Assembly (NCBI GenBank): GCA_965649765.1
Contig: OZ287756.1
Location: 5,394,001 to 5,458,000 of the forward strand
Source: Bispira polyomma
Lineage: Eukaryota
Length of the DNA stretch: 64,000 nucleotides
Direction: 5' to 3'
In this document: one piece after another, positions 6,728-37,090 of the stretch
How positions within the stretch are numbered: position 1 is the stretch's first letter
How the letters are laid out: the number at the start of each line of letters is the position of its first letter
The notes under the pieces: generated by a model
What the model was told of the DNA's origin: nothing
Database searches by the model: none
Seen by the model: the letters and a program-made list of their open reading frames with translations, nothing else
Program-made: the position numbers and the translations under genes

Positions 6728-7069
6728 TTAATGTCACTTGAAGACAAACATATTAAAATATTTCTGAAAAAAAAAAAGATTTTTGTGTTAAATGTGGGAA
6801 TATATAAACTTTTTTTTTAAAGAATTGAAGGCATTGAAAGATTTTAAAACTGTGAACTTTTACCATTTCTGCAAAAAGTTGTAGTTTTACACCTATCTCT
6901 GGACACACAGTGAATTGGTATGTCATATTTAAACTGACATATAAGCCTTAAAGTGGAGTGTTAAAATCAATAACTCTTGGTATAGATGTATGTGTACAAC
7001 ATAATGTCAGTATAATAAAAAATTATCTATCTATCTTTGTTTGGTTAAGACAGTAAAACTCTGATTCAA

Positions 7070-7830: not shown

Positions 7831-9442
7831 TCGTTTAGATGTACGGTGGAGTATTATTATCCACAGCTTGAAAGGTTGAACTTAAAAGTGATTTTAATTT
7901 AAAACAGTAGAGAAGCATTAGAAATATCTTTACAGTGATTGACACAATAAACCAAACCTCTTTGTTGTTGATTTTGGGTTTAACAACGTCGTTGGACCAT
8001 GAATTTTCAGTTTCCAATGGGTGACTAGAAATATGACTCCTTCAGTTTCCAATGGGTGATTTAGACTATGAGTCTTTCAGTTTACATACTCCATGATTTT
8101 TGTTTAGGTTCCAATGCGTAATTTACAACCTAACTTCGTTGCTGGTCCCATGACTCTTTTCCTTTCAATGGGTGGTTGCGACTATGACTCTTTAAGTTTC
8201 CAATAATTGGCTGGGCCCATGAGTTCCCTTGTTTTTGACAGTTTCACGTATGTCACACATGTTATGCCAATTGTAGAACCTATAACCACACAACACATAA
8301 TAACAGAGTTATTCAGTATTATTGTCACTAGCTTCGACAGCTAAAACTAGTACTGGGCACTACAGCAGTGATTATGTTTGGAGAACAAAATGGTAAGAAT
8401 GTTAGATCATCAGTGAAATAATAGTCTATATAATAATATTTATTTACTTGGCCTAAGTCTAAAACCAAATGTGACTGAAAAACATTTTAAACATTTTAAA
8501 ATTTTAAAAAATCATATTTCTGACCAAAACTGTCAACACCTCTTTAACTTGCTGATACATATTTAGACACCCCATCCATTCTTAATTTTCCTTGGTTAAT
8601 AATAAGGACAAAAGTAACTGTTATGGCTGCAATTTACAAAAATGGCATTAATCATACCTTTCCTTCAGGAACATAAATAGTGATCAGGGCCACAGACATC
8701 TATAAAGTTTAAGTGAAATAATGATTTTATTGACATATTTTTTCCATGTTTTTAAAGGATCAATTCAAGTTAAATGTCAATATTCAGAAAGATAAGTGTC
8801 ATGCAAATTATTTGTTATCCTTAGGATACACTGTTGTTTCAATCAAATAGTGTCAGAAACTATTGCTAGTCTCTCACCAATATGGGTTCGAACCCCTTTG
8901 TTCCTTCATGTTAGAAAGTTTGTCAGCACCCTTCAGTATAGTCAATCTGGTGTGTAGTGGAAAGTAAAAATTTGGAAACAATTGGCAATAGACTTGCTAA
9001 AACCTGGTAATTTGAAAACTTTACCATCTACCCGGACTTTATAAATAATAAACTGGCTATTGTGGCATGACACATATTGATTAAACCAATGTTAATCTAA
9101 TTAAATTGATAAGCCTGTAACAGGACAGTATTGATGTCAGCATACATATATTTTTGGTAAATTCAAGAAAAGTTGAATTACTTTTCAACTAAAAGATAAC
9201 CTAAAACCAATTACACATTTTACATGACCATATGTGACCAACGTGAAAGTTGTTAGTATACTTATATAATGAGTATACTGGTACTAATATTTGTACCAGT
9301 AATAAAACATGACTTTATTAATGATAAGTTATATTGTATATTGTCAGTTTTTGATATACCTTGCTTAAATTTATATCGAAGGATATTACTGTTTTTCGTG
9401 CTGTTTTAAGTTAAATCTTATAAACAGTAATTCAATACATAC

Positions 9443-9723
9443 CTGCTATGTAGAAATATGGTATGCATCTTATTTCAAAATCTTTTTGGATGGCAACTGT
9501 AATATTGATGTTGCCAACATTCGTATTTTATTGGTCACCACCAGACAAGGACTTTTGACATCCCTAAGAAACATCACTAATGTTGTATGTAAGACATATT
9601 CTTGATCTGGACGGGAACTTAACAACTCACTTATTTTGATAAAAACTGGTGCATTAGAAGTTACATCTTTTGCAGCAGTAGCATTGATCAGGTGAGTACT
9701 GGTTGAATAGTAAGGTGATGTTT
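9443..9723 (-). pseudogene. orphan duplicated exon 2 of the CHST15-like sulfotransferase, frameshifted
   Basis: Homologous to 55600-55881 with both splice sites kept. It is 281 bp instead of 282 bp (1-bp deletion near NKNVNVG); neither the catalytic exon nor exon 1 is present in the unit. Confidence 0.85.
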
Positions 9724-10329
9724 CTGCAAATAGAAAAAAGCACAATTAAGCAAAACTAATGCATCGACAGATCCAGGATTCTGTAAAGGGGGGGGGGGGA
9801 GGGTCTGCCTCCAGAATTCATTGTTAGATTCATATTTCCTAAAATGTTAGGGGTTCCACATTCACAAAAAAGGTCTTAATGTTTACTGGTCTTAGTCTCA
9901 ACTCGATGTTTTTGTCATGGATAAAGACTCAAAAGGGCAACTAACGCTAAATAAGCTCAATGGGCCCTTAAAGGTTGCATTAGCTATAGTACAATTCACT
10001 AGGGGCGTAAAAATAATGCATTTTTAAATGAATGAAAACTACATCCTGCAGGATGATAACTATTAAATTGGGTGTGTATTATGCCTGCATCACATCCAAA
10101 CACCATCACACAACATCAGGCATCGTTGGAAGAAATGTGAGATTCATGCAAAAAATTGAAATTTTCCACCCAAAAAGATTGCAAAGAACTATTTTTTTTC
10201 CATTACCTAATGTCAATTTTACTGTAAATCAATTTCACTTCCCTTCCTCTGAAGTCCTTCTTGTCGCCCCTGAGTTGTCTCCAATCGACAAGGCCCTGCC
10301 ACGCTTCTCCATTTCAATTCATCATGCAA

Positions 10330-10835
10330 TGTTGAAAAATGTCCCAAAAAGTTTTATTACCTCGCTTTAACGATCAGACTATTCCTGTGACCGTCCCCTA
10401 CCATATGATGCTTTTCCTGTCTGTCTCTAAATTTTACTATATGTTATTGAATGTCATACAATTTTTATTTTCTCTTTGCCCTTTTCCCCCGTTTACCCTC
10501 CGTCATGAGCCTTTAGTGAAATTTATATGCTGCCCCCGCAAGTGTCCTTCCATCAGCTTCCGTTATTTGAACTAACCTTTTCAATCCATCGTGCAACATT
10601 GAAGAATGTCCTAAGAAGTGTCATAACCTCGCTTTAACCGTCATACTATTCCTGTGACCGTCTCCTACCATATGCTGCTTTTCCTGTCTTTCACTATATG
10701 TCACTGACTGCTATACAATGTTTACTTCTCTTGCCCTTTTTTAACCATTTATCCTCCGTCACGAACCTTCAATGAGATTTACATGCTGCCCCTGTAAGTG
10801 TCGTTTTATCAGCTTCCGTTATTTGAACTAACCCT
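10330..10835. repeat. local tandem duplication, ~250 bp x2 (also 38200-38700)
   Basis: acctcgctttaa...ctattcctgtgaccgtc...ccatatg...cagcttccgttatttgaactaacc occurs twice in a row. Confidence 0.65.
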
Positions 10836-11508
10836 TTAAATTCGTCCCCAAAAGCCAGGAACCATTGCACTCTGTTACATTATGTCACAAACAGCAAGAA
10901 AATTCTGTTACTAACTTTTTGTTCCAGCTTCTCTCTTCCGCATACTTCCCTATGACAGTTTCCCTACTTCTGACTAAGTGGCCCAGAACTTCACCTCCTG
11001 TCACACACCCTTTCTTTATATCCATAACCCTCAACTCTCTTTCCTGCAAGTCTGTAACCGTTGAATCAGGTCACTGAGCATAATTTTTTTTTCTGTCCGT
11101 TCACGTAAAATTATCCACATAAAAGGGCAGCCACTCTGGATTTTTTTGGCATTTAAATTTTTGCAAAGACAGGAATACATGATAATTAGACGAATGCAAT
11201 TGTTTCTACATGCTTATGTTGCTGTGCTTGCAGGACACCAAAACATGGGCACGATGTTGTGTTATGGATGAATGCTGCAGGTGCCAGGAGAAGGCGGTTA
11301 CACAGAAGACCTTGGACTAGATGTTGAATACTCAAGAGACCTGGATATGGTCTGCATTAGAACTTATTTGGGGACTTAGAGAGGAATGATCCTGTATCTT
11401 ACAGGAACCTCACTAGATGCGCACCAGACTTATTCCAGTTCATATTATAGAGAACCACACCACATATCCAAAGAACTGCAAACAACTTCAGGCCTCCTGG
11501 CAGGCCAG

Positions 11509-11750
11509 GGCTGGTATTCTCGAACGTATACTCAGCTTAAACTCATACTCAACTCAAATACAGGCCATGTGAAATTCATTGTACATGGAAATAACCTATA
11601 CTTGTGACCATTCATTTTAATAGAGCTTTCAACACTGAATTCAAATATGAAGTCAGATTTTGGATATTTTTGCTGTGTCCAGAGCTATAGAGAATCCAGA
11701 TTTGAGCTGAGTATGAGTTTAAGCTGAGTATACGTTCGAGAATACCAGGC
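11509..11750. mobile_element. PIF/Harbinger-type MITE
   Basis: ~50-bp TIRs (GGCTGGTATTCTCGAACGTATACTCAGCTTAAACTCATACTC...); TSD CAG at 11506-11508 and 11751-11753. Copy at 39377-39618; decayed relatives near 49720-49940 and 56730-56870. Confidence 0.8.
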
Positions 11751-11996
11751 CAGGGGCACAGTTAGAACCAGACCTAAGATATAAGAATATCAGATATCTT
11801 GCCTCTAGCAGTATACACAGTGACATGCAGATCTTGGTCTTTGATTTTGTCCGAAAAGATTTTTATTTTGGTCTTAGATCTAAGAACATTTATTAGCTCA
11901 CTGTTAACATTTTCTCTTAACACTAAAACAAACAGTATGCAAGTGTTAAACATTTTAGACCCTTTTGAGAATATGGCCCCAGTAAACTAAATTTAA

Positions 11997-12185
11997 AGGG
12001 GCGAATATACCTGTTCAAATCTGTCATACGAAAAATTGAATAAAATTATTTCACTTTCCTGTCCGCCATCCAAAAAAAGGCGTATCTTACTTCTGTGTTT
12101 TCTTAGACTATAATTTTTTCAAATGATGGAAACGGACGTTGGATGACAGATTTGAAAGCAAAATCGGATAGGTGTATTCACCCTT
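11997..12185. mobile_element. Tourist/Harbinger-like MITE
   Basis: Imperfect TIR AGGGG(C/T)GAATA(T/C)ACCT, flanked by TAA on both sides. Confidence 0.6.
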
Positions 12186-12427
12186 TAAGATTCTGATTCA
12201 CCCAGCATTCTGTGGCGAACTAAGGCTATTATTAAGCACTGGCACCCTAAAAAGAGCGCCGTTTCGACATCTAGCCCCAGTGATTACTTGGTGTGGCCGT
12301 TTTGACACCAAAAGAATAAATGTTTTAGTGTCAAAATTGCCACACCAACTACACACCAATGCAAATATATCATCGAGGCTGTCAAAATGGCCCACCTTAG
12401 TTGATTCAAATCAAAAGACCCCAAAGG

Positions 12428-12717
12428 CGAGTTGTTAGCATTATGAGGGATTCCATGCATATACAGGCTTCACAAAGTGAGTTCTCAGCATTACAAGAGC
12501 TTTCATGCATATACAGGCCTCACAAAGTGAGATTTTAGGGTTACGAGGGCTTCCATGCATATACAGGCTTCACAAAGCGAGTTGTTAGCATTACGAGAGC
12601 TTTCATGCATATACAGGTCTCACAAAGACAGCTCTTAGCATTACGAGGGCTTCCATGCATATACAGGCCTCACAAAGCGAGTTGTTAGCATTAAGAGGGT
12701 TATCATGCATATACAGG
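12428..12717. repeat. 50-bp minisatellite, ~6 copies (also 40298-40587)
   Basis: CATGCATATACAGG starts at 12454, 12504, 12554, 12604, 12654, 12704. Confidence 0.9.
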
Positions 12718-13896
12718 CCCCAGTTAATGTTAACCATACCTTTTTGAGATTTCAAACCAAAAAGCAGTTTCAGTTGGTCTGTGGGCAGCAACTGAATGAA
12801 GGTCAGTACTAACAACAATACAAATACCAATATAACTCCCCCAAACAATACTCTCCTGCAATATCTATAATTTTTCATTTTTCAGAAAAATAACACCGTG
12901 ACATCGGCAAGAATGGGAGGCAAAGCCAAAAATTTTTGAACATGTTCAAAATGTCCATGGGTGGTCGGCTCTGAAAGTACATCTTGAGAGAACTGGACAA
13001 AAGGGGTGTGGTCGTAGCATAAACAGGGCTTAAACTGCTTAGAAACTTGATCTGGCCAGACCTGGAGTAATTTGCTGTAATCTGGAGCAAACGTTACATT
13101 CACGTGTGACGAACTGCTTAGATCAGCGTAGGTCTGGGCATAAATTTGTCATAAACTGGTAAGATCTGGTCAAAACTGGGCATATCCTGGGCATAAACGG
13201 GGTTGATCAGGGCATAAACGGGGGATTCAAATATATGCAAATAAACATTTCGCCGCCTTTCTCTTCCGACCAGCCAAGTTCTAATGGTAGGGAGTGAACT
13301 GGTATAAAAGTGGTGCGAACTTGGACAGTGTGACTGCCACATAATTAAATTAAGTGGAATTCCATAATCTTTAATCTTAATTCTCGTATACATGAAACAT
13401 GATACAGAAAGAAGAAAAAAAAATAATAATAATACTCATAATACACACATTACGCACGCTTGCCGAAGTCTTTCACAAGCCAGTGAATACAAGTCATTGC
13501 TGGCTGGCTGTGTAACAGGTGAGAGTATAACAAAAAATGTATTTATCTATGCCGGATCAATACTTGTATTGCATCACAAGGCTTCACCATGAGTATTGTG
13601 TACAAATATGACGTTCTACAGAGATTTCAAATAGTGTGACGTCACAATGCAAGAATCGACGTAGAATTCTATGAGTATTTTATTCACTTTGTGACAAACT
13701 ATATCAGCGACGTATTTGTGTGTTTACGTTACTTAACCCTTAAAGTCACTTTATTATTGCAGTACATTTTTTCTTCTGCATTGAATTAAAAAAAATTAGC
13801 TACAAACTTTTAACATATATTGTGTTTTCTTTGTGTTTTCATTGCATTAGGTCACTAAAGACAATATAGAGGTTGTTTATATTTCCCATTTTTCTG

Positions 13897-14580
13897 GGGC
13901 TGTATTCACTAAGATGGATCAAGCTGAGCGAAAAATCAGCTCAAGATCAGCTCAGGATTAAGATCAGCTCAAAAAAAGGCTCAGCTGATCTTTGGATCAA
14001 ATCAGTATTCACAGAGCAAGGATCAGCTGAGCCAAAAATTAGATAATTTTTAAACAACAAAAACACAAGTTTAAGTTTTTATACATATTAAACAGCTGTT
14101 ATATGAATTAATTTCCATTTAGATTATATTTTTATGCATTACGTTAATTATTGTAAGCAAAAGAATATTTTAAATATTTTGGTTTTAATCCAAAAACTTA
14201 AGCTCCGCCCACTTTTGATCCTTGAAAAATACACAAAACATAGCCTCTTTTCACAACAATTTAAACCAACAAAGAACTGTAAATAGCTACTCTTAAAATA
14301 CCATATGTAAGTTTAAAGAATCCGAGATAATTTATCAAGGATTAATTTTATGAACACATTGTTAGTTTGTTTATTACAAAGCTCCAAACTTTGATCCAAA
14401 TCTTGATCTACCAAAATGGATGGATCATAGTTGAGCCAAAAGATGAGCGAAAAATCAGCTTAACATTTTAGTGAATACCAAATTTAATCTGATCCAAAAA
14501 TTTGAGCTAATTTTTGGCTCAGCTAATTTTTGGCTCAACTTGAGCTGATTTTTCGTTGATCCCTTTTGTGAATACGGCCC
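13897..14580. mobile_element. PIF/Harbinger-type MITE
   Basis: TIRs GGGCTGTATTCAC...GTGAATACGGCCC, subterminal CAGCTCA/TGAGCTG repeats, TSD CTG. The unit-2 copy (41542-~42205) has a damaged right end. Confidence 0.8.
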
Positions 14581-15419
14581 CTGGTCACCTTTTTTTGCTT
14601 TTTTTTCAGTTAAATCAGTTTATTCACCCTTTTTTTACAGTATTTAATTTCACTGACTACCGGGGAGGCGAGCGTGGAAACCTTCCATCGGTGTCTCACA
14701 GTATGATTCATACACAGTATGAATACATAAATACATTAAATTGTTAATTTTATGTTGATATAACTAAAAACAATTTTTACACAAAAGACTCAAGACACAA
14801 CACTACAATGCTACAGAATAGTTTGTGTATATTCAACTAACTTATTAAAAAATTCATATTTTTTCCATTTCTGCATGTGACACACAAGACCTAACAAATA
14901 AGTACATTTATTTGTTTTTCATTCAAATAGCACTTGAAAATATAAAAGTTTGCTTGTAGAATTAAAGTGTTAACTTCTCTGTGGTGTAAAAGATTTTTTA
15001 AATTGTATTCCAAAGTTATATTTCTCAAACTAAAAAATATGACATATTCTTTATAAAATTTTCCCCAAGTTTTAAATAAATTTAACCAGTATGTTTTAAC
15101 TTGTGAACATTTATAAAATAGATGCTCAATAGTATGAGTTTCTGTGCTGCATATGTATCAATTTGGTTCACTCCTTTTTTCATTTGATAAAGCAAATTTG
15201 TCTGTGCTAATAAACCGAAAAATATCTTGCATTGCATTTCTTTTACTTTATTCTCTATTGATAGCTTATTGTACTATAGTGAAAGTTAGTGAACATACAA
15301 TATCTTCATTGCTTTTGTTTTATCTTTCCTCCAAATATTGGCGACAAAAGATGATCATCTGCCTGACTACAACTTCTGTTATAAGCATTGCACATAACAA
15401 CATTGGATTTTGACTTAAG

Positions 15420-16870
15420 CTCTGACTTATTTTTACCACCCGAGCTACTAGAACTACCTTCATGATGTATACTGTCCTTATGGGTACGCTGTGTTAACCT
15501 TGATCTGAGGTTATGGATCTCAAATTCAAATTTTTACACTTAACTCTGCCCTTCTCCATTTATAATAATATCTGACAGTGAGCACTCTCTACAGTGTACC
15601 ACGAGGTCTCTAAGCCATCGCCCATAAGCTGCATACCATACTTGAGCATGTTATTTCTAACCTTCTCATCCCTTTCCTCATGTATACAGCCTAAATACCC
15701 TTGAAACCACATGACCTGCTTTTTACCTGAGATATTATAACAGAGCTCATGGGGCCAATTTATTACATGCTTTACATTGTGTTCGGAAGTTCTTTGAAGC
15801 CCTGATTTAACTTCTTACCACTTTCCTCGGGTGATCTGTAGAGCTGTGAGCTATGCTTATGCAGCCGCTTGTCCACCTGCGCCTGGATCTGCTTATTGGA
15901 TTGTAAGTACCTCTGGCTGGGTAGAATTACATCGTCCTGGTCATCATAGTCAGCATGGAATTCTGGGTCATAATCTGGTTGGTTTTTATGCCTGCGTTGT
16001 GGGATATTAACAGACAGTTCCTCGTCTGACTGGATGTCAGGACGATAACCACGTCGCACAGGTGAACTCTGCAGACTCTGTGAGCATCTGCAGACAACTT
16101 ATAGTCCCGATCCCTCCTCACATAGCTCATTTTGTTCTCCAACCGATTTAACTTCGCCAGTATTATATACAATTTGCTAGACTGTTCAGTTTCTCCTGGT
16201 ACCTGCTCTTCCTGGGTAATCCGCCTGGTGCCGAGGGCTCCATCACTGGGTCTGCTGTCCTCTTCCTGGGTCCTCTTCCGACTCCTGATGACAGGGAGTG
16301 TATCCATATGATTTAAAATACATTGCCTTCCCACAGGCCTCTGATGCACGGTCGGACACTTTTTACAATAGGCAGTCTTTAATGACATTTTTGTTTCCTA
16401 AAATGGTCTATGTATTGTCTGAACACTGTAAAATAAAACGTGAGGTGCTGCAGGTTATGCTTGCCAGAAAGGGAAGTGTGTGTAAATTATAAATAAAATA
16501 AAATGATGAAACTAAAAGCTTTCAGATAAAACATGCTAAGCGTGGAAAGAAAATATTGGCACACGTCTCTTTATGATAGGCTGAATAAGCCAAAACAAGC
16601 ATAAATTACAGAGTCCCCCAAGCACAACGACTCAGCATGTCTCCCAGCAAGCAACTAATGACCCTGAGGCTCTTAAACAGGGGATTTTATAGTTGTTGCT
16701 TTCCCTAACACACAACTTGGAATGACCCATTACTAGAATGGGGTGAGGGGTGAAGGGTTTATGTTTCTAAAAGGGAAGGAGGGTGTCCACCTCGGACTGA
16801 CCTTACGTGCTGCGCAGCTTACTCACAAAATAACTTATTAGCAATAACCCCCGGCTCCGACAATGATCCC
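15420..16870 (-). mobile_element. degenerate DIRS/Ngaro-like (tyrosine-recombinase retrotransposon) ORF1/gag remnant
   Basis: Frameshifted pieces give N-terminal CKKCPTVHQRPVGRQC and KSGLQ...VINWPHE...WFQGYLGCIHEERDEKVRNNMLKYGMQLMGDGLETSW...AHCQILL*MEKG, a motif pattern I associate with DIRS-group ORF1. No RT or YR seen. Confidence 0.6.
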
Positions 16871-17293
16871 TTGCTTTAATAAGTTAAGGTGGGTATAACC
16901 CTCACTTAAGGTAAGCTTACCTGAACTTAAATTTTAAGTGTTAAGGTTATTATTTTATATTAGCCACACATTTTAACATTACTTAATATCTGAAATATTA
17001 AGTAAAGATGACACTAAAATTTATGTATAACCCATTGGTATACATATTGGCACTGGAAGATACGACCACACATATATGCACTTGTCTGTATTGTTCAGAA
17101 CTTGCGTGGAGTATTTTTGTAACCTTGATCCTGCACTATAAATCACATTCATACGACACCAATGTTCAGTACCAAAGTATGTAATAACAATGCTAGACAT
17201 TCGTCATTAACCTTTAAGAAGATGACGTTTTGCATTGCTCTTTTTTTCTTTGTAAAAGTACCAAATTTCTATTGAGTTCACTGCAAATTTGTG

Positions 17294-17330
17294 TATAAAA
17301 AAAGGTAGTTTGTACTGGTATCTAATCACT
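17294..17330 (+). promoter_or_regulatory. TATA box and putative initiator of peptide gene copy 2
   Basis: TATAAAA at 17294-17300, Inr-like TCACT at 17326-17330, ATG at 17356; same layout at 44911. Confidence 0.6.
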
Positions 17331-17355
17331 CCATTGGTTGTTTGACTACACTACA

Positions 17356-17448
17356 ATGCTGAAGCTGCTTGTGTTGAGCCTGTTTTTGCTGGCTGGTCTG
17401 AATGATGCTGGACCTCTGCAACAAAGGATTCTTGGTGAAGAGAATGAG
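17356..17448 (+). CDS. Cys/Tyr/Pro-rich prepropeptide copy 2, exon 1 (signal peptide + pro-region)
   Basis: MLKLLVLSLFLLAGLNDA-GPLQQRILGEENE then donor GAG|GTGGGT, phase 0, in frame with the acceptor at 20600. Too short for the ORF track. Confidence 0.8.
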
Positions 17449-20400
17449 GTGGGTGTTTGTATTGTATGTTTGAGTTTGTATTAGTTTCGAACCAGCGAGA
17501 CGAACACACTACAACTGTTATTGTATTTATCAGTGAGTATACGTTTCCACTTTGTTTCAGATTCGTCTTCATTCAAAGCACTTTGTTTATATCCTTGATT
17601 ATTAGTGAGCATTAGTGGATATGCCACATATATTTTGGGATGTTTAAAACATTTCTGTTAAAAAGCTATTTCATAAGGGGTTTTGTCAATTTTTTCCAGT
17701 AGCGAGGTGTTGTTGGCTCGTTTTGCATTAGTGTCAATTAGTAGCAGCTAGATACAAATTGTTGGTATTGGTGAGGAATTATTGTGTATTCAGTAGTGTT
17801 TATGATGTCTTTATTTCTCATGGGTGGGCATTAGTGTGTATTCAGTAGTGTTTATGATGTCTTTGTTTCTCATGGGTGGAGATTAGTGTCAGTCGGTAGG
17901 TATATGTCAGTTTTGTAGCCCAAGCTTGTGTCAGATTGTTACAAATATGCCACAACTTTGCGGCGGTGGGTTGGAGGGATGAGGAGGTCTCTTCATGAAC
18001 AATAGGCCACGAACCAGAATTTACTATATACACCAAAACGGCTGAATATTTGTCTATATCTGACCAAGCCATTAATGCAGGTATAATTAAACTTTTAACA
18101 TAGAGATTTTCCTTGGTGCCTGTATTTTAAATATAATCCAGGTATTTTTCATTCAGCACAGGGCACTACCATCTTAGAAAAAATATGTAAGGCCTTTATG
18201 GTTGGAAGCAATCAACTGGTCCAAACTGAGGGGTGTGACATTATTGTTAATTTATCAAGCATAAATTTGCTTAGGATAACTTATTATTCATCAATCAGAG
18301 ATTTTTACTTGTTATAGCAATTAGGAACTCTAGTACTTTATTTCAAGCAAAATATTTTTAGAATTCACTCAAAACATTTAGCTTTTCTGTTAACTTTAAT
18401 GAAGAATGTCCACATTAGCTAGTGTGTATGTTATCTTTATGCTGGGACAGCATACATGTGCATATTGCAACTAAAGGAGCTGAACTTGTTTTCAATCAAA
18501 ATTTAGCAAATCCATCAGAACTTTTCAGTTTCATCAGGCATGAAATGTAGTAAATGTCTAAGTTCGAATTAGTGTCAAAACATTGATATCACAAGCAAAT
18601 AGCATCTATTAAACGTAATAATCTAATGATAAGATCATTCTCTTGATCGCATCAAATGCAGTCAGATAAAAATATTGAAAGCCACTCGTGATTTTTGTGA
18701 AAATAATGATTAGAGATTTAAAATACAAAAGTTTTAAAATGGACAATTGAATGGGATTCATTATTCATGTGTATATTTTACAAAAATTGTCATGTAGCTT
18801 TAATTTATTTTTTAAAATATTCTTATTAATACACTAATATAAAATATACATTTCACATACACACAATAATTTTTGCACACATATTACATTAACATAAAGT
18901 ACTGAATACTATTATGAATCTATGAAGAATTGTATCAAGGGATATAAATTAATGTAAAGACAAAACGTATTAAACGATTGACAACACGCCCCCCCCCCCC
19001 AAAAAAAAAAAAATAAAATGAGATTAATATATTTTATTATTACAACTAAACATTTCTTGTTGCATATATATATAGATATTTATATATCTATATAGTATGG
19101 CATAACAAGGTGAATTTATAATAGTAAGAATTCTGCTATGCTGAGAGCATTATATATTATTATTATTATTAATATTATCATTATTATTATTATTATTATG
19201 ACATTATTTCTAACTTGTTCATAATGTGCTCATTCAGCACAGATACATTCTTCCCATATACATATTTCAAAAAAGTATAAGCCGGTGATAAGAAAATAAC
19301 CTGTATTTTTTCAAGTGAATTACACATAAGCCTGTACATCAATCTGTACATCTATATATATATATATATATATCCAAATGTCATCCAGGTATATATATTT
19401 TTTTAATTAAAACTTACAAAATACTGACAGCTGCAGTGAAACGAATCTTCTATCGTATTTAGACAAAAGCATGTGAAATACAGACATAAGTTAGTAATCA
19501 AACCAACATATTAAGAACATATTGGAAACATAAAAAGCCACTTGGAAACAGAACTGTATATGTCACAGAATCTTAACATATGTCACAGAATCTTAACATA
19601 TGTCAAAGGTCTCCAGTTAAGATTAGGAACATTTAAGCTAGCGGTAAAGATGGGCAGATACAAGAAACAAAAATGTGGACATGTGGAGTGAGAAAGCACA
19701 TGTAAAATCATGCATTATTATCGGCTTGTTATCAGCTTATTATCTTGTTATCAGCTTATATATAACACTTATTGTGGTAATTTTAATGTAACTGTTTTGT
19801 GGACTGATCAATAAATGAGCCTTGTTGGATCATTAACTTCGTAAAATGATACTAATATGTAGTTGTTATGTAGAAAAGTCATTTTTGAATGTAAATTACA
19901 CACATACACCCAACCAAAACGAAAGACCTCAGCACATAGAAAATAATAGAAGTCTTTGTGTTTCATCCCTTGTTTTAAAAATTGGGGTAAAAAAAATCAT
20001 GGTAACCTTGACTTTCTGTTAAAGTCACCTCAAAGCTTAAAGCTTTTCTTGGGGGATAATGAAAACTCAAGTTAAGGTTAACATACCTAATTAATCTATT
20101 GTTTTCAAAATTGGGTTAAAACAAATCATGGCGGCCTTAACTTGATGTTAAGGTCTCCTCAAGTTGAGTTTAACTTAAAATGCATTTTTAAATGGCACCC
20201 TGTGCAATGCTTGTGAACATGTCTTTTGGGCACTGTATCAAATGCATAATACACTGTAGATAAAGTTCGGCTGTTCAATCTTTCTGTGGTAGGTTTCTGG
20301 CGGACAAAAAATTGTGTGATTGAAATATTATTGTGTGATTATTTTCTCAGAGTGGCTTTTGTTTGCAAACTAACTTTTTATGCATGTGTATTTGATGGAA

Positions 20401-20599
20401 GAGCTAAAACACAAAACCATGTGGTACACATTTTAGGTATCCATGGTGTGATTTTAATAGAAATGGTTCATTATTTTACAATAGAACTAAACTATTTCAG
20501 CTCGAAAATTAAGCTCATTTTAAATGATCAATGAAGTTGGATAAATGCATGAGGTCAAAAACACTTGTTTACATTATATAATTCCTATAATAATTGTAG

Positions 20600-20920
20600 G
20601 TGGATCACGTGAGAGACAAGAGAGCCAGTGGGCTGTTCTACTGTTACTACCTGGCTCATCACCTGTGTGACCACTACATTCCCACCTGTAGTTCTTACAC
20701 AATCTCCTATGTGTGTGCCCATGTCATAAATGTTCCCTCCGCTTACAACCCTCCCTGCTATTACTACGGCTACTACTACTACACCTGCTGTTGCTACAGA
20801 TACACCTGCAACAACCCCCCAACTCCAGCCCCACCGACACCCGCCCCGTCCCCACCTTCCCCACCATCCCCACCAATCCCTCCAATCCCACCATTTAGGG
20901 AGGAATTTGAAATTCCTTGA
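20600..20920 (+). CDS. Cys/Tyr/Pro-rich prepropeptide copy 2, exon 2 (chimeric between copies 3 and 1)
   Basis: ttgtAG|GTG acceptor; 106 codons plus stop; spliced product 137 aa. Confidence 0.85.
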   Translation: MDHVRDKRASGLFYCYYLAHHLCDHYIPTCSSYTISYVCAHVINVPSAYNPPCYYYGYYYYTCCCYRYTCNNPPTPAPPTPAPSPPSPPSPPIPPIPPFREEFEIP

Positions 20921-21262
20921 TTATAGTGAGAGCAAGAGAGAGGAAGAGGTGTGGTATGGAAGATCTGTGTCATGCCTCTGTGAATGGCTGAAACATATTG
21001 AACTTATTTGATGTAAATACTGATAATAATTAATAAACATATCAGTCATATTGCATTTCTTGTTTTCTTTAGTTGTTTTAGAGGGAGGCCCGCAAAAACA
21101 CAATCTAAAGTCTAATTACAAATTTGATATAAGACTAACAGCATTTTAAAATTGATTGTACACTTTATGATAGAGATAAAATAGTTTGATTGTGTTGTCG
21201 ATAACGTGTGAGTAAATTTTAATCTCTTGAGTTTAGAAGAAACATTGATTAACTTAATGTCA

Positions 21263-24200
21263 AGGTTATAACTGGCTCTGGAACAGTGTTAATAGGTCAA
21301 AAAGAAATATTATTAGCAATTAATATCTACCAAAGGTGATAAGCCAAGACAATTTGGCGAAGAATTGGCGACCTATCTCATTGCTATCGGTTATTTATAA
21401 AATTGCATCATCAGCTTTGGCTTTGAGGATGCGACCAGTTTTAGATAAATTGATATCAAACTCTCAGTCAGGTTTTATGGTTGGTCGCTGTATTGGTGAA
21501 AACACACGTTTGATATATGATTTGATACATTATACAAATATGAACAAAATCCCAGGTTTATTATTGCTCAATGATTTTCAAAAAGCTTTTGACTCTGTGT
21601 CTTGGTCTTTTCTTTAATCAACTCTCAAAATTTTTCTTCAAAAAAAATTTTTGTGAATGGATAAAGGTGCTTAATACTAATGTTAAGGCAGCCATTCTTC
21701 AATGTAGAATACTTTCAGAATTTTTTGAGATAGGGCGTGGACATAGGCAAGATGATCCAATAGCTGCCTAATTATTCATACTGTGTACTCTAATAATGTA
21801 TCTACTAATTGTAGCGGGACGGGGGGCCACCCCGTCCACCGTCCACTCTTCTCCATCCGGGGGGAGGGATCAAACCCCCCCCCCTGTTGCCCCGAGCCCT
21901 CGAGGGAGAACGACCCTGCCACGGCCTGAAGGGGACCGTCGGCGCCGACCCGACACACTCTACTGGATGTCTGGCCGGAACCCCGCGCTACCACCGCCCA
22001 GCGCGGCTCCCCGGAAGGGGGGCGCACCCCCAGAGAAGAAACCGAGAACGGGTGCTGCTGCATGAGGGACCGACCTCTTTGTCGTATCCCCTTCCGATGG
22101 TTTCTCTTCCACCATGTATCTGCCTATCTTCTATCTATATAGGATCTAACCTATCACCCACTGACGCTAGTTATTCATACTTTCCGTTTGCTGCCACCAT
22201 GTCGATTAGGTCGACAAGACCATAGACCAAGAGTTAAAACTATCCCACCTAACCAAAACTCATCTTGGTACTCTGGGTTCCCCTACCACCCACTAGCTGG
22301 GACAACACTGGCCGGTTACCCACCGACCAACCAATTCACCCTGACCCATTTCCCGTGGTCCCACCCAGCTACCGACCAAAAGCTGTTACTGGAATATTCT
22401 TTACGGATAGTCCAACCTTAAGTTTTCACAATTTAGTAGTGTAAACTGAGCACACTGTAGAGTCAGAGTCGTGAGCAAGTGAGATATTGCAGCCTAGGTT
22501 CAAGGATTTCTTTGTTAGGACACCTATGCAATTTTACCTTACAACTAATTCTTGGAGGAGTACAGTCACTGTTTTCGAAGAAGATATGTTCTACGGACGG
22601 ACACGCTGTCAACCAACTCAAAAGAGTGCAGGTTTGTAAACCAAGGTCAAGGTCATTTGCCTTTAAGGTCGTGGTCGAGGTCACCCTCTAATCTTAACCC
22701 TACTGATTTTACTGGCAAACCCAGGTCATGAGTTGATCAAAGTTATTTTAATAGAGTGGAAAACACAATAATGGAAACACAATAAATGACATTTCAAACA
22801 AGTATATATTAACAACAAATGTAAATATTAAAACGGACAAAATAGATGTGGGGTACAATATTAAAACGGAAAGCCACACATATATGTATATAATAGCAAA
22901 CACCAATTATTAGCTGACTTAGTATTAATATTAAAAGAAAGGAGATTATAAACAGTTAGGTTTTATATTTTAGAATTAGAACAATATATAGAAGTTAATA
23001 CCCACACATAACATTGAAAGAAAGAAATAGACACAACAAACACAAATTAACCAAGGAAACACACAACATTTACTGAGGCTATGACATATGACAAAATTAA
23101 GATTTTAGTTACAATTTGGAAAATATAGGATTTAATAGTGTACTTAAACTCAAAATAATTGATTAAGGATTTTGATTTATTTAAAATTTAGTAAAGTATG
23201 GGATTTCATAATGTTATTAACAATAATTAAGTTAGGATTTGTTATATTTTTAATTTAGAAAAGTATAGAATTTAATAATAAAGTTAAATTATGTGATGTA
23301 TTATAACGTTACATCACATAATTTGAACCAAAAGGGGGGATATATACGCAGCAAGTGGTGATATAGAATAATTATTTCTAAGCAACAAAAATTGTAAAGT
23401 TTAAGAAAACAATAGTATTATGCATCTGCATCGACAATTATTTGTAAGTTAAAGAAAACAATAATATTGGGCATTTGTATCGACAATTATTTGCAAGTTA
23501 AAGAAAACAATAATATTAAGCATTTACATCAACAACTATTTGAAGGTTAAAGAAAGAATATTATTATTTGTTACTCAGGTCAAATTTCACTGTGATTATA
23601 ATTAATTACTGCTGGAAACATTACTTTCAACTTAGAATTATTATTTTACCATTTCAACACAATCATTGAGTTTAGTTGTTTCAAGTTTAAATAATTGTCT
23701 CTATATTATAACACTAGTTCTACCAAAAATCCCACTACAATTATAAAGTTTACTTTCTTTTAAGCCTAATTAAATGACTCTATACTATAATACAAGTTCT
23801 AACGAAAAATTCCACTGTATCAGAAATCCCTATAACTCCCATATTGCATGTACTAACTCGATCCTACCTACTGTTTAACTTAAACCTTTCCTAACCTAAT
23901 TAATGGGGTGCTCAATTATATTTGTCCTCCCATATTTGCTTCCCTGTACCATGTGGCGAAGTCCTGGGATGGTCTATATATAGACAGAGCCCCTGCAACT
24001 TCCCACCACATCATGGGTACGGTCAACAAATACCGGGACTGGGAAACAAAGGGGTGAAACAAGGTTAAAGATCAAGGTCCAGGTCAAAGTTATATCCCAC
24101 CTACCAATATGAAAGATGACCCAGATGATTGAAATGGCAACATTTGAATAGGTACTTTCACCATACATGGCCTCATCGCCGTCGCGGATAACCAATACAG

Positions 24201-26709
24201 GGTAACCCAGCAAGTCTCCCCCCAAGAAACTGGCCGGCTCCTCACCTGCCTCCTTGGGACTAGAAGTACCTATGCCCTGGCTGTTGTAGCCCAAACAGAA
24301 TGGTGGTTAAAACTACTAAGTTTGATGAAATGATAGTGATACTTCCCCATGTGACCACCTACCCATGAGGGGTACCCCTACCCCCCCCACAGGGGATGGG
24401 GTACCAAAGTATTAAGGTATCCTCCAAGTATCACTAAATGAATGAGGTGAATGATATTATAAAATTATAGTAATGAAAACAGGGGAGAAACTTATCACTA
24501 TGATAGGCCAAATCAAACTGACAGCCAACTCCCAATATCTAGGTCAAACTTTATCCCCATGCTTGATAACTATTTGGTCAAAAATTGGGTATAATGATAT
24601 TTAAATATAATGAAAATTCATCCCAAACCCCCCCTATCCCCACCAAATATGTTGTTACTACTTGTTAAAACATAATGAGTATGAACCCTACCTTGATTAA
24701 GTTAAAATAATTAAATTCCAATGCACACAAAAAAGAAACCATCTACAACTCTTTGTTGCCAATATGAAAGAGAGAGAGATCCAGTCTGGAAGCCACGAGG
24801 CTGTCCTCCCAGAAACACCCACAAAATCTTATTGGCTCAGCCAGCTCACATGACAAACATCCCACCTTATATCTCCCTATATATATAACCCATCTAAATA
24901 TAGTAACTCCTGATGACCTCAGCTTGTTTACATCTATTTAGAATACTTCAGTACTGGGTAGTTTTAATGCAGCATTTGAAACAGCTGAAAAACCTAGCCA
25001 AAATCAGGCTGTATTTACTTTTTGAAATTCCCAATTTTCCTTGGTGAAATTACCGAAATTTGGCAACTTAAGGGTCTCATGGAAATGGCATTCGCCACAT
25101 AATTATGAATGAAAAATTTATTAAAGGCATTCAAATTAACAAAATAAAATATAAAATCTCACAATTTGGCGATGATACAACTTTAATTTTGAATGAAAGT
25201 AAGGAGTCCCTTTTGGTAGCTTTAAATGTTTTAGAAATTTTTGGCTCAATGTCTGGTTTGCAGATAAATACTGATAAAACCAAACTTATATGGATTGGTA
25301 AAAAACGAAACTTAAAAGACAAGATTGATGTAGGCAAATCATTGGTATGGGAAGCAACTACTTTTCATCTTTTTGGGATTAACTTTTCAATAAACTTGAA
25401 TGAAATGATTCATATGAACTACCCTCCTACTATTGAAAAACTATTATTTTATGTTTGGAACCAAAGGTATTTGACACCCCTGGGAAGGGTAACTATAATT
25501 AAAACATTCGCATTATCTAAACTAAAGCATCTGTTTCTTTCTTTACCATCTCCTGGAAAGGCAATTTTAAAAGTTATTGAAAATATGTTCTATAAGTTTA
25601 TTTGGAGTGGTAAACCTGACAAAGTAAAGAGAACAATTTTGACAAGACATTATCTGGATGGTGGTTTAAAAATGATACACATCAACAACTTTGTGTCTGC
25701 ACTTAAAATAACTTGGTTACGTCGCTTTAATAATAATTCACATGCTCCATAGGCTAAACTAGCAATAAATTTCATCGGCTATGACAAGGTTTTTTTGCTT
25801 AGGTCAAATTACTCCAGAAATATATTGCTAGAAATATTGACTATAAATTTTGGATGAAAACTTTATAGAGAGTCTAACTGATCGCAGTGACGATCTATCT
25901 TTACCAATCTGGCACAATACTAAGATATCAAAATCTAACCTTTACTGTCCCAAATGGTATAATGCAGGTATTGTTTCAATAGCCGATTTGATTTGTAGTA
26001 GTGGAGAGTTTTTGACCGAAAAAGAATTGAATTCTATTTATAAAATTAAAACTAATTTTCTCGAATATCTCGAATATTATTTTTGGATTCGCTTCCTGCA
26101 AAAGTGCAAAGACTATTATCAATTTAATATATTTAACCGCAAAAGCTTTCATTTTTAAAGTTTCAAGAAGAAAAGGTTTATTATCACAACAGACCTTTAG
26201 TAACTATTTAAAGCAAATTTATACTGAACGGGAATATGCCTCAAAAATAAAAGATGAACATACAGCTTTTATCAAAAACTGGGGAAACATTCAGAATCTT
26301 TTTGTTTGACATTGTTGTAATTTAGTAAAATTAAATGTGGTTTGTCTACGTGCATTTGTATTGTTTTTATTGTGATATTTTCGGCTTTTTTTTCTCATTG
26401 TGTAATGTAATATCTGTTGTATCAAAGTCTTTCCTATTGTTATTGTAATTGTACTGTCATTTATATTGTTTTTTATTGTGATATTTTCTGATTTTTGTTT
26501 TTCATTGTGTAATGTAATGTCAATTTTGTCATAGCTTCTTTCCTATTGCAACTGTAATGTCATTTGTATTGTTTTAATTGTGATATTTTCGGATTTATTT
26601 TTAATTTTTTTTTTTCATTTTGTAATATAATATTAGTTGAAGAAGTGTCTTTCCTATTGTTATTGTAATTGTACTGTCATTTGTCTTATAAAAAAATTTA
26701 AAAAAAAAT
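21263..26709 (+). mobile_element. L1/Tx1 LINE, unit-2 copy (extra ~0.3-kb deletion near 21317)
   Basis: Duplicate of 997-6727; TSD TTAATGTCA at 21254-21262 and 26710-26718. Confidence 0.9.
21810..25099 (-). mobile_element. 3.3-kb TG...CA nested insertion, unit-2 copy
   Basis: TGTAGCGG...TTCGCCACA; TSD TAAT at 21806-21809 and 25100-25103. Confidence 0.75.
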
Positions 26710-27429
26710 TTAATGTCACTTGAAGACAAACATATTAAAATATTTCTGAAAAAAAAAAAGATTTTTTGTGTTAAATGTGGGAATATATAAACTTTTTTTT
26801 TAAAGAATTGAAGGCATTGAAAGATTTTAAAACTGTGAACTTTTACCATTTCTGCAAAAAGTTATAGTTTTACACCTATCTCTGGACACACAGTGAATTG
26901 GTATGTCATATTTAAACTGACATATAAGCCTTAAAGTGGAGTGTTAAAATCAATAACTCTTGGTATAGATGTATGTGTACAACATAATGTCAGTATAATA
27001 AAAAATTATCTATCTATCTTTGTTTGGTTAAGACAGTAAAACTCTGATTCAATTGTTGTATATTTGATCTTCATATTAATTTTGTAATTCTGTAAACTTT
27101 CTGGTACATATTCTGTGTGAATATAAGTTGTATATTTGATTTTGGCATTAATATTGTAATTATGATTCTTTGATATGTATTCTTTTGTGTAACTATGAGT
27201 TGTATATTTGATCTTGATCTTACTTTTGTTTTTGTACAGACATATTCTTGCCAAGACATATTCTTGGAAGGGGTGGTACTCCTCACTTAAAACAATGTCA
27301 TTCCATAACTCAAACGGAAGAGATGGTACTTCTTTCTTAAAACAATGTCACTCTATAACCTTAATGAAAGAGGTGGTACTTCTTTAGTAAAACAATGTCA
27401 CTCCATAACTTAAATGGAAGAGGTAGTAC

Positions 27430-28620
27430 TTTATCAAATCCAGTAGTCTAAATGGCTGCTAACAATGAAATTAGCCAGAGGGATGGCAGTATCTAGTGAC
27501 AAACGATTTCTGATTCTTTTGATGTTACAAATGTGATAGTAACAGGAGTGACAAATGTTGCTGTGTATCAAATGTGTGTATTAAATGAGAAAGTGGAATC
27601 AATGGTGACACCAAGGCTCTTGACAGTATTGGAGGGCTGAATATCATTGCCCAGTAGTGTAATGGGTTTGAATTTGAATTTGAAACCACTAGGCCACCGC
27701 GGCCCCAGTGTAATGGGGAATAATGATCTTAAATACTCACTGTTCTTGTTACCAATGACAATAAATCCAGTTTAATCTGGATTTAATTTCAATTTGGAGT
27801 AATTCATCTAAGCCTGTAATGGTGAGAGGCAGTCAGCAAATAGACTGAGATTATTGTACGCATTATGACGTTTGAGTGAGAGATAGATTTGAGTATTGTC
27901 AGCACACAAATGGTGTTTAACATTGTGACTATCGATGACTGTAAAGTATGTGTGTAAAGTATAAAGTAAAGGCCCTAGGACTGACCCCTGGGGTACCCCG
28001 AAATGTAGATAGAAAGAGGATGAGAAGTGATCATCCAGTTTGAACTTTTGGGAGTGAGATTTGATCCGATACAATGAAGGACAGTGCCATCAAGTCCAAA
28101 CTACTGTTTTAGGGTGTTGAACAGTAGACCATGGTCAATGTTATCAAAAGCTGCCGCGAGATCTAGAAGGGTGAGGGTCACAGTTTTATCCCGATCTAAG
28201 GCAAGATTTATGTCATCACTAATGGAAATGAGGGTACTTCCTGTGGAGTGGAATTTTCTGTAAGCAGACTGGTGGAAGTTAGCAAGTTTATGTTTATTAA
28301 GGTGATCATGTTTTTTCGCAACAGCTTTCTCGATGAGTTTAGAGACAGAGCTGCGGCTAGAGCAATGAGAGAGATTAATGGTAGGGATAGGATCCAGCTC
28401 ACACGATGTGATGGAAGAGGATTCTATCAGTTTGGGAACATCATTCTCAGAAACAAGATGAAAGTGTAGAAGATTTTAAACGCTGTAGCCCTCGGATGGT
28501 GGGTAAAACTGTAATATGGTAGAAAACCCCTCCTGGATTTTGGTTATTTTGTCAGTTAAGAAATTGCCAAATGTATTAGATAAAAATGTAAGGCAAAAAC
28601 TGTCGGGCAAAACTCGTTTA
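27430..28620 (-). mobile_element. degenerate L2-clade LINE RT fragment
   Basis: LLDLAAAFDNIDH, GVPQGSVLGPLL, HHLCADNTQIY; same family as 60025-61149. Confidence 0.85.
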
Positions 28621-30019
28621 AATGTACGGTGGAGTATTATTATCCATAGCTTGAAAGGTTGAACTTAAAAGTGATTTTAATTTAAAACAGTAGAGAAGCA
28701 TTAGAAATATCTTTACAGTGATTGACACAATAAACCAAACCTCTTTGTTGTTTTCACTTTAAGGTTCTTAAAAGGTAAACGAGAATTTAACTCACAAGTT
28801 TAGACAGTAGCATTTACAACACTCTCAGCATTCTCATCTATGTTTATATCAGTGTTGATTTGATTTGATTTTGGGTTTAACAACGTCGTTGGACCATGAA
28901 TTTTCAGTTTCCAATGGGTGACTAGAAATATGACTCCTTCAGTTTCCAATGGGTGATTTAGACTGGGAGTCTTTCAGTTTACATACTCCATGATTTTTGT
29001 TTAGGTTCCAATGCGTAATTTACAACCTAACTTCGTTGCTGGTCCCATGATTCTTTTCCTTTCAATGGGTGGTTGCGACTATGACTCTTTAAATTTCCAA
29101 TAATTGGCTGGGCCCATGAGTTCCCTTGTTTTTGACAGTTTCACGTATGTCACACATGTTATGCCAATTGTAGAACCTATAACCACACAACACATAATAA
29201 CAGAGTTATTCAGTATTATTGTCACTAGCTTCGACAGCTAAAACTAGTACTGGGCACTACAGCAGTGATTATGTTTGGAGAACAAAATGGTAAGAATGTT
29301 AGATCATCAGTGAAATAATAGTCTATATAATAATATTTATTTACTTGGCCTAAGTCTAAAACCAAATGTGACTGAAAAACATTTTAAACATTTTAAAATT
29401 TAAAAAAATCATATTTCTGACCAAAACTGTCAACACCTCTTTAACTTGCTGATACATTTTTAGACACCCCATCCATTCTTAGTTTTCCTTGGTTAAAAAC
29501 AAGGACAAAAGTAACTGTTATGGCTGCAATTTACAAAAATGGCATTAATCATACCTTTCCTTCAGGAACATAAATAGTGATCAGGGCCACAGACATATAT
29601 AAAGTTTAAGTGAAATAATGATTTTATTGACATATTTTTTCCATGTTTTTAAAGGATCAATTCAAGCTAAATGTCAATATTCAGAAAGATAAGTGTCATG
29701 CAAATTATTTGTTATCCTTAGGATACACTGTTGTTTAAATCAAATAGTGTCAGAAACTATTGCTAGTCTCTCACCAATATGGGTTCGAACCCCTTTGTTC
29801 CTTCATGTTAGAAAGTTTGTCAGTACCCTTCAGTATAGTCAATCTGGTGTGTACTGGAAAGTAAAAATTTGGAAATAATTGGCAATAGACTTGCTAAAAC
29901 CTGGTAATTTGAAAACTTTACCATCTACTCGGACTTTATAAATAATAAACTGGCTATTGTGGCATGACACATATTGATTAAACCAATGTTAATCTAATTA
30001 AATTGATAAGCCTGTAACA

Positions 30020-30264
30020 ATAATAATAATAATAATAATGCATTTTTAACGCGCTTTATTGATGCCAGGCATCTTCTAAAGCGCAACAGCAGAATCAGTG
30101 ATCCAATCGTAAAGTCCATGGGCATAGCAAGGTCATAAGGGTAGGGGGGTTAACAGCTGGTTGATCAGCAAGCAACGAGATTGAGTATTAACCCACCCCG
30201 TAGCATCCGGCGGCAAGGGGCGCAACTCCCTTTCACGCTTCACATGGTGAAGGGTGCCGTAGCC
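30020..30264 (-). mobile_element. short retroposed insertion with an L2-type 3' tail (probable 5'-truncated SINE), unit 2 only
   Basis: Absent at the homologous site near 9118; TSD AACA; (TTA)n tail; last ~115 nt align with the L2 3'UTR at ~61170-61280. Confidence 0.75.
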
Positions 30265-30588
30265 AACAGGACAGTATTGATGTCAGCATACATATATTTT
30301 TGGTAAATTCAAGAAAAGTTGAATTACTTTTCAACTAAAAGACAACCTAAAACCAATTACACATTTTACATGACCATATGTGACCAACGTGGAAGTTGTT
30401 AGTATACTTATATAATGAGTATAGTGGTACTAATATTTGTAACAGTAATAAAACATGACTTTATTAATGATAAGTTATATTGTATATTGTCAGTTTTTGA
30501 TATACCTTGCTTAAATTGATATCGAAGGATATTACTGTTTTTCGTGCTGTTTTAAGTTAAATCTTATAAACAGTAATTCAATACATAC

Positions 30589-30869
30589 CTGCTATGTAGA
30601 AATATGGTATGCATCTTATTTCAAAATCTTTTTGGATGGCAACTGTAATATTGATGTTGCCAACATTCGTATTTTATTGGTCACCACCAGACAAGGACTT
30701 TTGACATCCCTAAGAAACATCACTAATGTTGTATGTAAGACATATTCTTGATCTGGACGGGAACTTAACAACTCACTTATTTTGATAAAAACTGGTGCAT
30801 TAGAAGTTACATCTTTTGCAGCAGTAGCATTGATCAGATGAGTACTGGTTGAATAGTAAGGTGATGTTT
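30589..30869 (-). pseudogene. orphan frameshifted sulfotransferase exon 2, unit-2 copy
   Basis: Duplicate of 9443-9723, also 281 bp. Confidence 0.85.
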
Positions 30870-31228
30870 CTGCAAATAGAATAAAGCACAATTAAGCAAA
30901 ACTAATGCATCGACAGTTCCAGGATTCTGTAAAGGGAGGGGGGGGGGGGTCCGCCTCCAGAATTCATTGTTAGATTCATATTTCCTAAAATGTTAGGGGT
31001 TCCACATTCACAAAAAATGTCTTAATGTTTACTGGTCTTAGTCTCAACTCGATGTTTTTGTCATGGATAAAGACTCAAAAGGGCAACTAACGCTAAATAA
31101 GCTCAATGGGCCCTTAAAGGTTGCATTAGCTATAGTTCAATTCACTAGGGGTGTAAAAATAATGCATTTTTAAATGAATGAAAACTACATCCTGCAGGAT
31201 GATAACTATTAAATTGGGTGTGTATTAT

Positions 31229-32041
31229 TGTTACGGTGACGGGAGCAAGCGCGGTAGCAATTACTGGTTGCTTTGAGGTTGTAACAGGAAAAGACAAAAA
31301 GTTTCACTTAACAAATTTATTTTAACAAATAAAATAACAATTACAGAATTACAAAATTATACAATTACAAAATTACAAAATTACAGTCAACTGAGATACC
31401 CTTAATAGCTCACACAATAATACAATAATGAAATCAATCTGACCTGACCACAGTCCTGTCCACTCAAATAACAATTAAACCAGTTTGTCCACTGTATCCA
31501 GCAATCTGTCTTGAGATCCGCTCAATGTCCACACAATGCCTGTATCCTGTTATCTGTTCAGCGTCCACGCACACAAAATGTATATATCCAGAGAATCTGC
31601 ACAACTAAGCTATCCAGTCCAGGATGCAAACAATATCCAATATGCAGTAAATCCAATCTCTGGTAGATCCACAACTTTTAACTAGTTCACTCCAATGAGT
31701 TCACCACAAAATGTATATAACAAACAGTATAGTAGTTCCTATAGCATTCATATAGCACCTCAGCTCAATTAAATCTCTTCTGTGGCCAGGCTGTCAACCC
31801 TTATATATACCACTGCTAGAGAAGGTTGCTAGAATGTGTAAGCAATCGCTAGGACATTCCAGAGATGAGATATACATATGAATACAACTTTAATAACCTT
31901 CAGAAATAAAATAGAACCGGTTTCTAGAAGCTTAGGGGTTTCCCCAAATCTATAAATAGCTCACTCCAGCAGAGTGTAAAACCATTAATACTAACTAGAC
32001 CGGTTTTTCTTCCACACACCACAATGTCCCCATATGTAACA
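31229..32041 (-). repeat. 3' LTR
   Basis: Near-identical to 37116-37928; preceded on the minus strand by the polypurine tract. Confidence 0.95.
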
Positions 32042-32241
32042 CCTCCCCCCTTAAAGAAAAATTTTGGAAGCCGAGGGGTTACAAAATTTCATATTACACA
32101 AAACATAAGTGAATATACAGTGTACATATGTAATAACATTCTATGGAACATTGTATTTTAAGTTACACAAGTAATATCCATATGTAAACATCTAAGTTTT
32201 ACAAGTTACAACTTTTCAGTTACTAACATACAAAATATCCT

Positions 32242-37004: not shown

Positions 37005-37090
37005 TTTGAGCACTGTTGACTGTAATATATTTTCAAACAAAATAAATGATTTTTCAAAAAGCTATGAAAATAGTTAGATCAAATGGTTAG

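Follow-up and report, generated by a model that had tools for sequence, protein, structure and literature searches.

The anti-Lepore HBB/HBD chromosomes of mammalian beta-globin clusters are presented in PMC4041002 as the "duplication mutant" of unequal crossing-over. A tandem duplication in a genome sequence can also be false, and for false heterotype duplications PMC9516828 gives as marks half depth, a gap between the copies and discordant read pairs. The locus described here, in Bispira polyomma, can be compared with both. It lies in a stretch of 64,000 nucleotides (the window; contig OZ287756.1 of assembly GCA_965649765.1, positions 5,394,001 to 5,458,000, G+C 35%) and carries three copies of a gene with two coding exons. 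The ends of the array are formed by two paralogues in the same orientation (plus strand) that are about 10% diverged, paralogue A (copy 1) and paralogue B (copy 3). Copy 2, between them, joins the promoter region, exon 1 and intron of copy 3 to the exon-2 end, 3'UTR and flank of copy 1. Very probably this middle copy is a hybrid that arose by unequal crossover between older tandem paralogues and is real in the animal. The array has the following features.

-4722..-4630 relative to the window, and hence outside it: exon 1 of copy 1, located by alignment, 4,968 bp before its exon 2
339..659, plus strand: coding exon 2 of copy 1 (paralogue A)
587..20847: duplicated unit 1 (A 3' end, inter-gene DNA and B-type 5' end), 20,261 bp
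997..6724 (limits approximate), plus strand: decayed LINE-type insertion in the A-type 3' flank, called L1-like in the original prediction, with an RVT_1 match in the frame 987-1655
17294..17300, plus strand: TATA-like box TATAAAA of copy 2, a putative promoter element about 60 bp before the ATG, common to all three copies
17356..17448, plus strand: coding exon 1 of copy 2, B type and the same as in copy 3, with a GT donor in phase 0
17449..20599, plus strand: predicted intron of copy 2, B type, GT..AG, 3,151 bp
20600..20920, plus strand: chimeric coding exon 2 of copy 2, with RDKR, a Tyr/His-rich domain with nine Cys, a Pro-rich tail and the stop
20673..20847, plus strand: favoured crossover interval, 175 bp that are the same in all three copies (strict interval 20612-20847)
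20848..48651: duplicated unit 2, 27,804 bp, its extra length due mainly to a 6.7-kb LTR retrotransposon
20921..21037, plus strand: A-type 3'UTR of copy 2, with AATAAA at 21032
31229..37928, minus strand: Gypsy-type LTR retrotransposon, in unit 2 only, with 813-bp LTRs that show 2 differences and a 5-bp target duplication, ATTAT
44973..45065, plus strand: coding exon 1 of copy 3 (paralogue B)
48404..48724, plus strand: coding exon 2 of copy 3 (paralogue B)

The positions of exon 2 (339-659, 20600-20920 and 48404-48724) bear out the exon spacings of 20,261 and 27,804 bp given in the original prediction. Searches of the 1.035-Gb assembly (75 contigs) returned just these three copies, with no fourth copy or remnant of either exon. 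A fourth genomic match (L017; E 0.27, two stops) was rejected as a chance Pro/Tyr match. The mitochondrial COX1, in conserved contexts, uses TGA for Trp, AGA for Ser, AAA for Lys and ATA for Met, a pattern consistent with the invertebrate code (table 5) and speaking against an echinoderm, cnidarian, ascidian or vertebrate source.

Paralogues A and B are about 10.5% apart upstream and 8.5% apart downstream, with a pS of 0.10, and their old homology is seen as collinear patches that begin about 6 kb upstream and extend as far as 10 kb downstream. The DNA upstream of copy 1, including that beside the window, can be matched to that of copies 2 and 3 only patchily, with 75-94% identity within the patches, and the DNA downstream of copy 3 is 76-88% identical to that of copies 1 and 2. 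The inter-gene interval is present twice, in lengths of 20.3 and 27.8 kb, and the two versions show 270 mismatches in 19,575 aligned bases (1.4%), plus indels, the largest of which is the Gypsy-type element, with an empty site in unit 1. The 1.4% difference cannot by itself date the event, because a crossover between homologues would bring in differences between alleles.

The affinity of copy 2 changes abruptly within its second exon. Upstream of 20672 it agrees with copy 3 at 83 of 87 informative sites, and downstream of the switch it agrees with copy 1 at 29 of 33. Divergence was counted in well-aligned sequence, with 20041-20309 and 21098-21104 excluded: in the 838 upstream sites copy 2 differs from copy 3 at 10 (1.2%) and from copy 1 at 89 (10.6%), and in the 388 downstream sites it differs from copy 1 at 4 (1.0%) and from copy 3 at 29 (7.5%). 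The core at 20673-20847 shows 0 differences in 175 bp across copies 1, 2 and 3. The maximum chi-square was 84 on 120 informative sites, a value as high as which occurred in 0 of 5,000 permutations (permutation maximum 20.7). The proposal that the middle copy is a mosaic is borne out by these site affinities and by the permutation test, and alignment also confirmed the individual matches on which it had been based, namely to copy 3 in the upstream intron, at GTG (20611) and at CAC (20672), and to copy 1 at 20848, 20849 and 20851 (CCG-TCC), at 20896 and 20906 and in the L1-bearing flank.

The strict switch interval is 20612-20847, inside the coding exon. Breaks at 20612-20631 and at 20673-20847 leave the same number of discordant sites, eight, and the switch most likely lies within the 175-bp tract at 20673-20847, which is preferred because it is the longer of the two. 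The original prediction had placed the switch between about 20675 and 20845; its location inside the coding exon and the favoured tract were upheld, and the strict interval proved to be wider. The discordant sites (about 1%) are on a par with the 1.4% background difference between the units. The 175-bp core is the longest perfect A/B tract (the next longest is 64 bp) and makes up 3.7% of the 4,777 identical A/B bases; a random junction would fall in it about 4% of the time, so its location supports a homology-driven exchange. Taken with the A/B divergence and the doubled interval, the position of the switch in the longest perfect tract favours the unequal crossover between two older paralogues that had been suggested at the outset.

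A real structure could also have been reached by another route. Replication may have switched templates at the 175-bp match, or the whole A-B pair may have been duplicated and its inner B and A genes then fused by a deletion. Both would yield the order A, 5'B/3'A, B, so that sequence should not discriminate between them and a crossover. The two-step route requires one event more, and genome searches gave no fourth copy or remnant; furthermore, the switch is in register, without an indel, and the junction has no inserted or scrambled bases. A small probability is assigned to these routes taken together. Almost none is assigned to gene conversion alone, in which half of an ordinary third copy would have been turned into the sequence of the other paralogue. 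A few sites do conflict with a single switch, and a core without silent changes hints at conversion, marginally so (P 0.065, about 0.07, allowing for the longest gap). Against conversion, the affinity extends about 20 kb to each side of the switch, across non-genic DNA and transposons, and the switch is accompanied by an extra copy of the whole interval.

The origin of the array is best modelled by the unequal crossover. Purifying selection, perhaps with some gene conversion, would have held exon 2 nearly identical in A and B, and this near-identical exon would have offered the sole long perfect match for their misalignment. A misaligned crossover would then produce the order A - unit - (5'B/3'A) - unit - B. 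The Gypsy element may have entered unit 2 afterwards, or it may have arrived with that haplotype.

Several transposon and gene fragments lie in and around the array. The Gypsy-type element at 31229-37928 has a SCAN domain, and its integrase precedes the reverse transcriptase; a more decayed relative (91.7%) lies on the other strand about 27.5-32.5 kb upstream of the window (L006/L007). The LINE-type insertion of 997..6724 is missing at the corresponding place behind copy 3. A 306-bp deletion in the LINE fragment (1058-1363 versus 21322/21323) marks unit 2, and both forms occur in the public run X1 (see below). An RT-bearing LINE fragment is present in two copies that are 97% identical, one at 59880-61294, behind copy 3, and the other about 0.7-2.1 kb upstream of the window (L004), within the intron of copy 1. 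A 351-aa stop-to-stop frame at 53870-54925 (minus strand) has sulfotransferase domains (PF00685, PF13469) and is likely the last exon of a spliced gene; its relatives show 44-62% identity, one of them named GalNAc 4-sulfate 6-O-sulfotransferase, and it sits within a 2.4-kb segment that is absent from the corresponding A-type flank (9357-9399). About 14 kb before the first exon of copy 1, a frame at L005:1055-1777 (plus strand) matches DXD glycosyltransferases (PF04488, PF05704) and overlaps a preceding 326-aa frame.

An identical sequence signature would be left if two haplotypes, each with A, the unit and B, had been joined through the common exon during assembly to give a false tandem duplication. 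From general knowledge, the alleles of an invertebrate could plausibly differ by 1.4% and by large indels. Contigs, rather than raw reads, were compared from three public runs (X1, X2 and X3) of one study, perhaps of the assembly's own material; each contig table was covered for its 24 longest records, out of over 1,300 and over 10,000. These run contigs are of the de Bruijn type, in which near-identical copies collapse. Single-contig depths were used, a contig depth not being a copy number as such, and partly mosaic contigs were treated as pure unit 2. Seven flank contigs behind copy 3 cover 7,320 bp with 0 differences and have a mean depth of 15.7 in X2 and 15.0 in X3 (sum 30.7). When this flank baseline is combined with the assembly's own 31-mer multiplicity, the depths predicted for X2+X3 are 50.9, 52.5, 48.3, 47.5 and 48.0 for five unit contigs and 77.5 for the exon contig; those observed, in the same order, were 53.3, 55.4, 53.4, 48.7, 48.3 and 80.7. 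All six contigs are at 1.01-1.11 of the assembly-predicted depth. Expressed relative to the flank, the five unit contigs stand at 1.57-1.80x and the exon contig at 2.63x, where the assembly predicts 1.55-1.71x and 2.52x.

These depths fit poorly with the joining of two haplotypes. If the flank represented two alleles, the unit contigs would be predicted at about 24-26, whereas 48-55 was observed. The artefact also requires two doses of the B-type 3' flank, which is found at one unit-allele dose (13-18 per run, versus 15-18 for allele-specific unit contigs), and the uniformity of that flank over its 7,320 bp likewise speaks against two haplotypes. The B-type 3'UTR contig corresponds to one dose (19.5 and 17.5), and B-type upstream sequence occurs in two versions, from which a real molecule linking B-type upstream to A-type downstream sequence is to be expected. 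In addition, the copies are not separated by a gap of the kind that PMC9516828 counts among the signs of false duplication, and 0 N occur in the 164,000 bases examined (the window plus adjoining DNA). On the other side, the contigs of X1, X2 and X3 include no phased record that spans the junction, and the exon contig of X2 alone (48.4) fits four copies; single runs are noisy, and the same contig is at 32.3 in X3 (under three copies). A 400-bp contig identical to copy 2 over the junction was rejected as proof, since 31-mers cannot phase 175 identical bases. On balance an assembly artefact is given a very small probability, and unequal crossover in the animal remains the preferred reading.

Allele-specific unit contigs were also near the flank depth: 15 versus 17.2 and 15 versus 17.6 in X2, and sums of 344 versus 307 (four sites) in X1, a run whose depth is too uneven for dose (44-108 in the flank) save allele against allele. 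The original prediction also had it that copy number may vary between individuals; both units are at about flank dose in these runs. Half depth over the duplicated copies, one of the two signs by which the original prediction would have recognized a false haplotype duplication, was not seen in the contig depths, the baseline flank standing for either one or two chromosomes, and false haplotype duplication is thereby disfavoured. Of 40 variant rows shown, 29 were tested on unit 2, after removal of 2 deep-repeat rows inside the range, 4 before the range and 5 in the flank: 22 have unit-1 letters, 6 are in a repeat-rich stretch and 1 has copy 1's letter. One X1 contig runs across copy 2's own deletion junction at 21322/21323 with 0 differences. 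Further noise is seen at one X3 site (7.2 versus 21.0) and in A-type upstream sequence (23.8 versus 15.3), and a few differences remain at 55850 and 58552-58977, in repeat-rich bins. With the local depth of copy 3 (37) as baseline, the implied dose of unit 1 is 24, between equal and half dose. On that baseline the duplication may yet be heterozygous. No second allele was seen in the 7.3 kb flank, which suggests low local heterozygosity or hemizygosity; if heterozygosity is low, the duplication may perhaps predate the local alleles and sit on both homologues.

The gene itself proved to be larger than the original prediction had it, which lacked a first coding exon; this exon, with a signal-like sequence, was revealed by aligning the upstream regions. 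All three copies have an open 137-aa frame across two coding exons with one phase-0 intron, where splicing is deduced from sequence and the signal peptide was called by eye. Exon 1 encodes the signal-like N-terminus and the beginning of an acidic propeptide, and the precursor as a whole begins with the hydrophobic N-terminus, continues through the acidic pro-region and RDKR into a Tyr/Cys/His-rich domain of 64 residues, nine of them Cys, and ends in a Pro-rich tail. This precursor would be secreted and cleaved at RDKR. Its predicted mature part has 98 residues, including 16 Tyr, 9 Cys (at mature positions 7, 15, 22, 31, 45, 55, 56, 57 and 62), 4 His and 22 Pro. Copy 1 and copy 3 differ by 10 silent changes in 96.7 sites and 4 replacements in 314.3 sites (pN/pS 0.12, P=1.5e-4), arguing that the gene is under purifying selection.

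Composition and general knowledge are the basis for any guess at function, and they rank a matrix or coating role over defence: the chance that the product is a cross-linkable extracellular matrix or coating protein is put at roughly even, and a defence peptide is regarded as a possible but less likely identity. Cationic antimicrobial peptides are defined by the net positive charge of the mature peptide, and no such charge is found here (2 K+R versus 4 D+E, with 4 H). Exon 2 (106 aa) gave 0 matches at E<=0.001 among 1.84 billion representatives and no protein homologue at E<=1 among 55 candidates, all with lengths of 58-186; Pfam returned 0 families for exon 2 and 0 for exon 1, Atlas no usable match for exon 2, and PDB two polyproline matches only for exon 2 (E 2.2 and 4.3). 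The homologue libraries are thin for eukaryotes, and such blank searches show neither novelty nor absence. Two single-sequence structure models disagree (pLDDT 72, alpha/beta, and pLDDT 53, all-helix), and fold searches came back blank, with a best Z of 3.6 and a best E of 1.8.

Two changes private to copy 2 (TG to AA) lie at 17301-17302, directly 3' of the TATA-like box, and could make its expression different from that of copy 3. A 156-aa open frame on the minus strand (15930-16397 and 43550-44017) is kept in both units, in a repeat-rich stretch a short way upstream of the gene; it is without a Pfam match and is probably transposon-derived.

Residues 7 and 56 separate the hybrid from copy 1 and residues 115 and 134 separate it from copy 3, the parents being different at 4 of 137 positions. 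Judged from the predicted translations, the mosaic would be almost silent in the protein and would mainly exchange promoter, intron and 3'UTR. Because the hybrid is only two residues from each parent, the effect of the event is likely one of dosage, and with all three frames intact the gene dose has likely risen by 3:2, with B-type promoters on two of the copies. A broader joint reading would make this the sole locus of a lineage-restricted protein family not yet described, whose secreted, convertase-cut members, rich in Tyr, Cys and His and ending in a polyproline tail, serve as a cross-linked extracellular coating; it would place the dose-raising crossover on both homologues and cast the hybrid as a bridge for conversion, which, sharing 20 kb with each parent, would keep the Cys core identical in the three genes. 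As a whole this joint reading is rather unlikely.

The mechanism is a textbook one and a familiar route to copy gain, and the junction itself will not surprise a specialist. The locus provides a clean invertebrate example, in which the break is placed in the longest perfect match, one preserved by selection on the exon. The gene family is the more interesting part, being a constrained, predicted-secreted precursor without a homologue in these searches, and the marker-rich hybrid junction offers a handle for testing copy number and conversion in a population.

In comparison with the false heterotype duplications of PMC9516828, as characterized there, the array is similar in having a tandem pair of copies that differ by about 1% and have k-mers of their own, and differs in that there is no gap, the units are near flank depth rather than half of it, and the junction lies in register between paralogues. 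The predicted precursor resembles the MgCRP-I peptides of Mytilus, in the features given for them in PMC4558851, by its signal peptide (here called by eye), its short pro-region ending in KR (here RDKR), a last exon that takes in the entire mature peptide together with the close of the pro-region and the 3'UTR, and growth by duplication. It departs from that description in its cysteine array (C-C-C-C-C-CCC-C, nine Cys, rather than C-C-CC-C-C), in its two coding exons with one predicted phase-0 intron rather than phase 1 and 2 introns, in its long polyproline tail and in a mature part that is conserved rather than hypervariable.

The closest parallel is with the anti-Lepore HBB/HBD chromosomes. 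As described in PMC4041002, these also involve tandem paralogues with a breakpoint at homologous sites, and their hybrid takes its 5' part from the downstream gene and its 3' part from the upstream gene and is located between both intact parents. The Bispira array differs in involving an unrelated gene family, in an invertebrate, with parents that diverge at so few residues. It shares an older pair in the same orientation, a homologous, in-register break within 20612-20847 and a 5'B/3'A hybrid between intact parents, and, to judge from the doubled interval and the agreement of all six contig depths, it appears to have gained the inter-gene interval as well.
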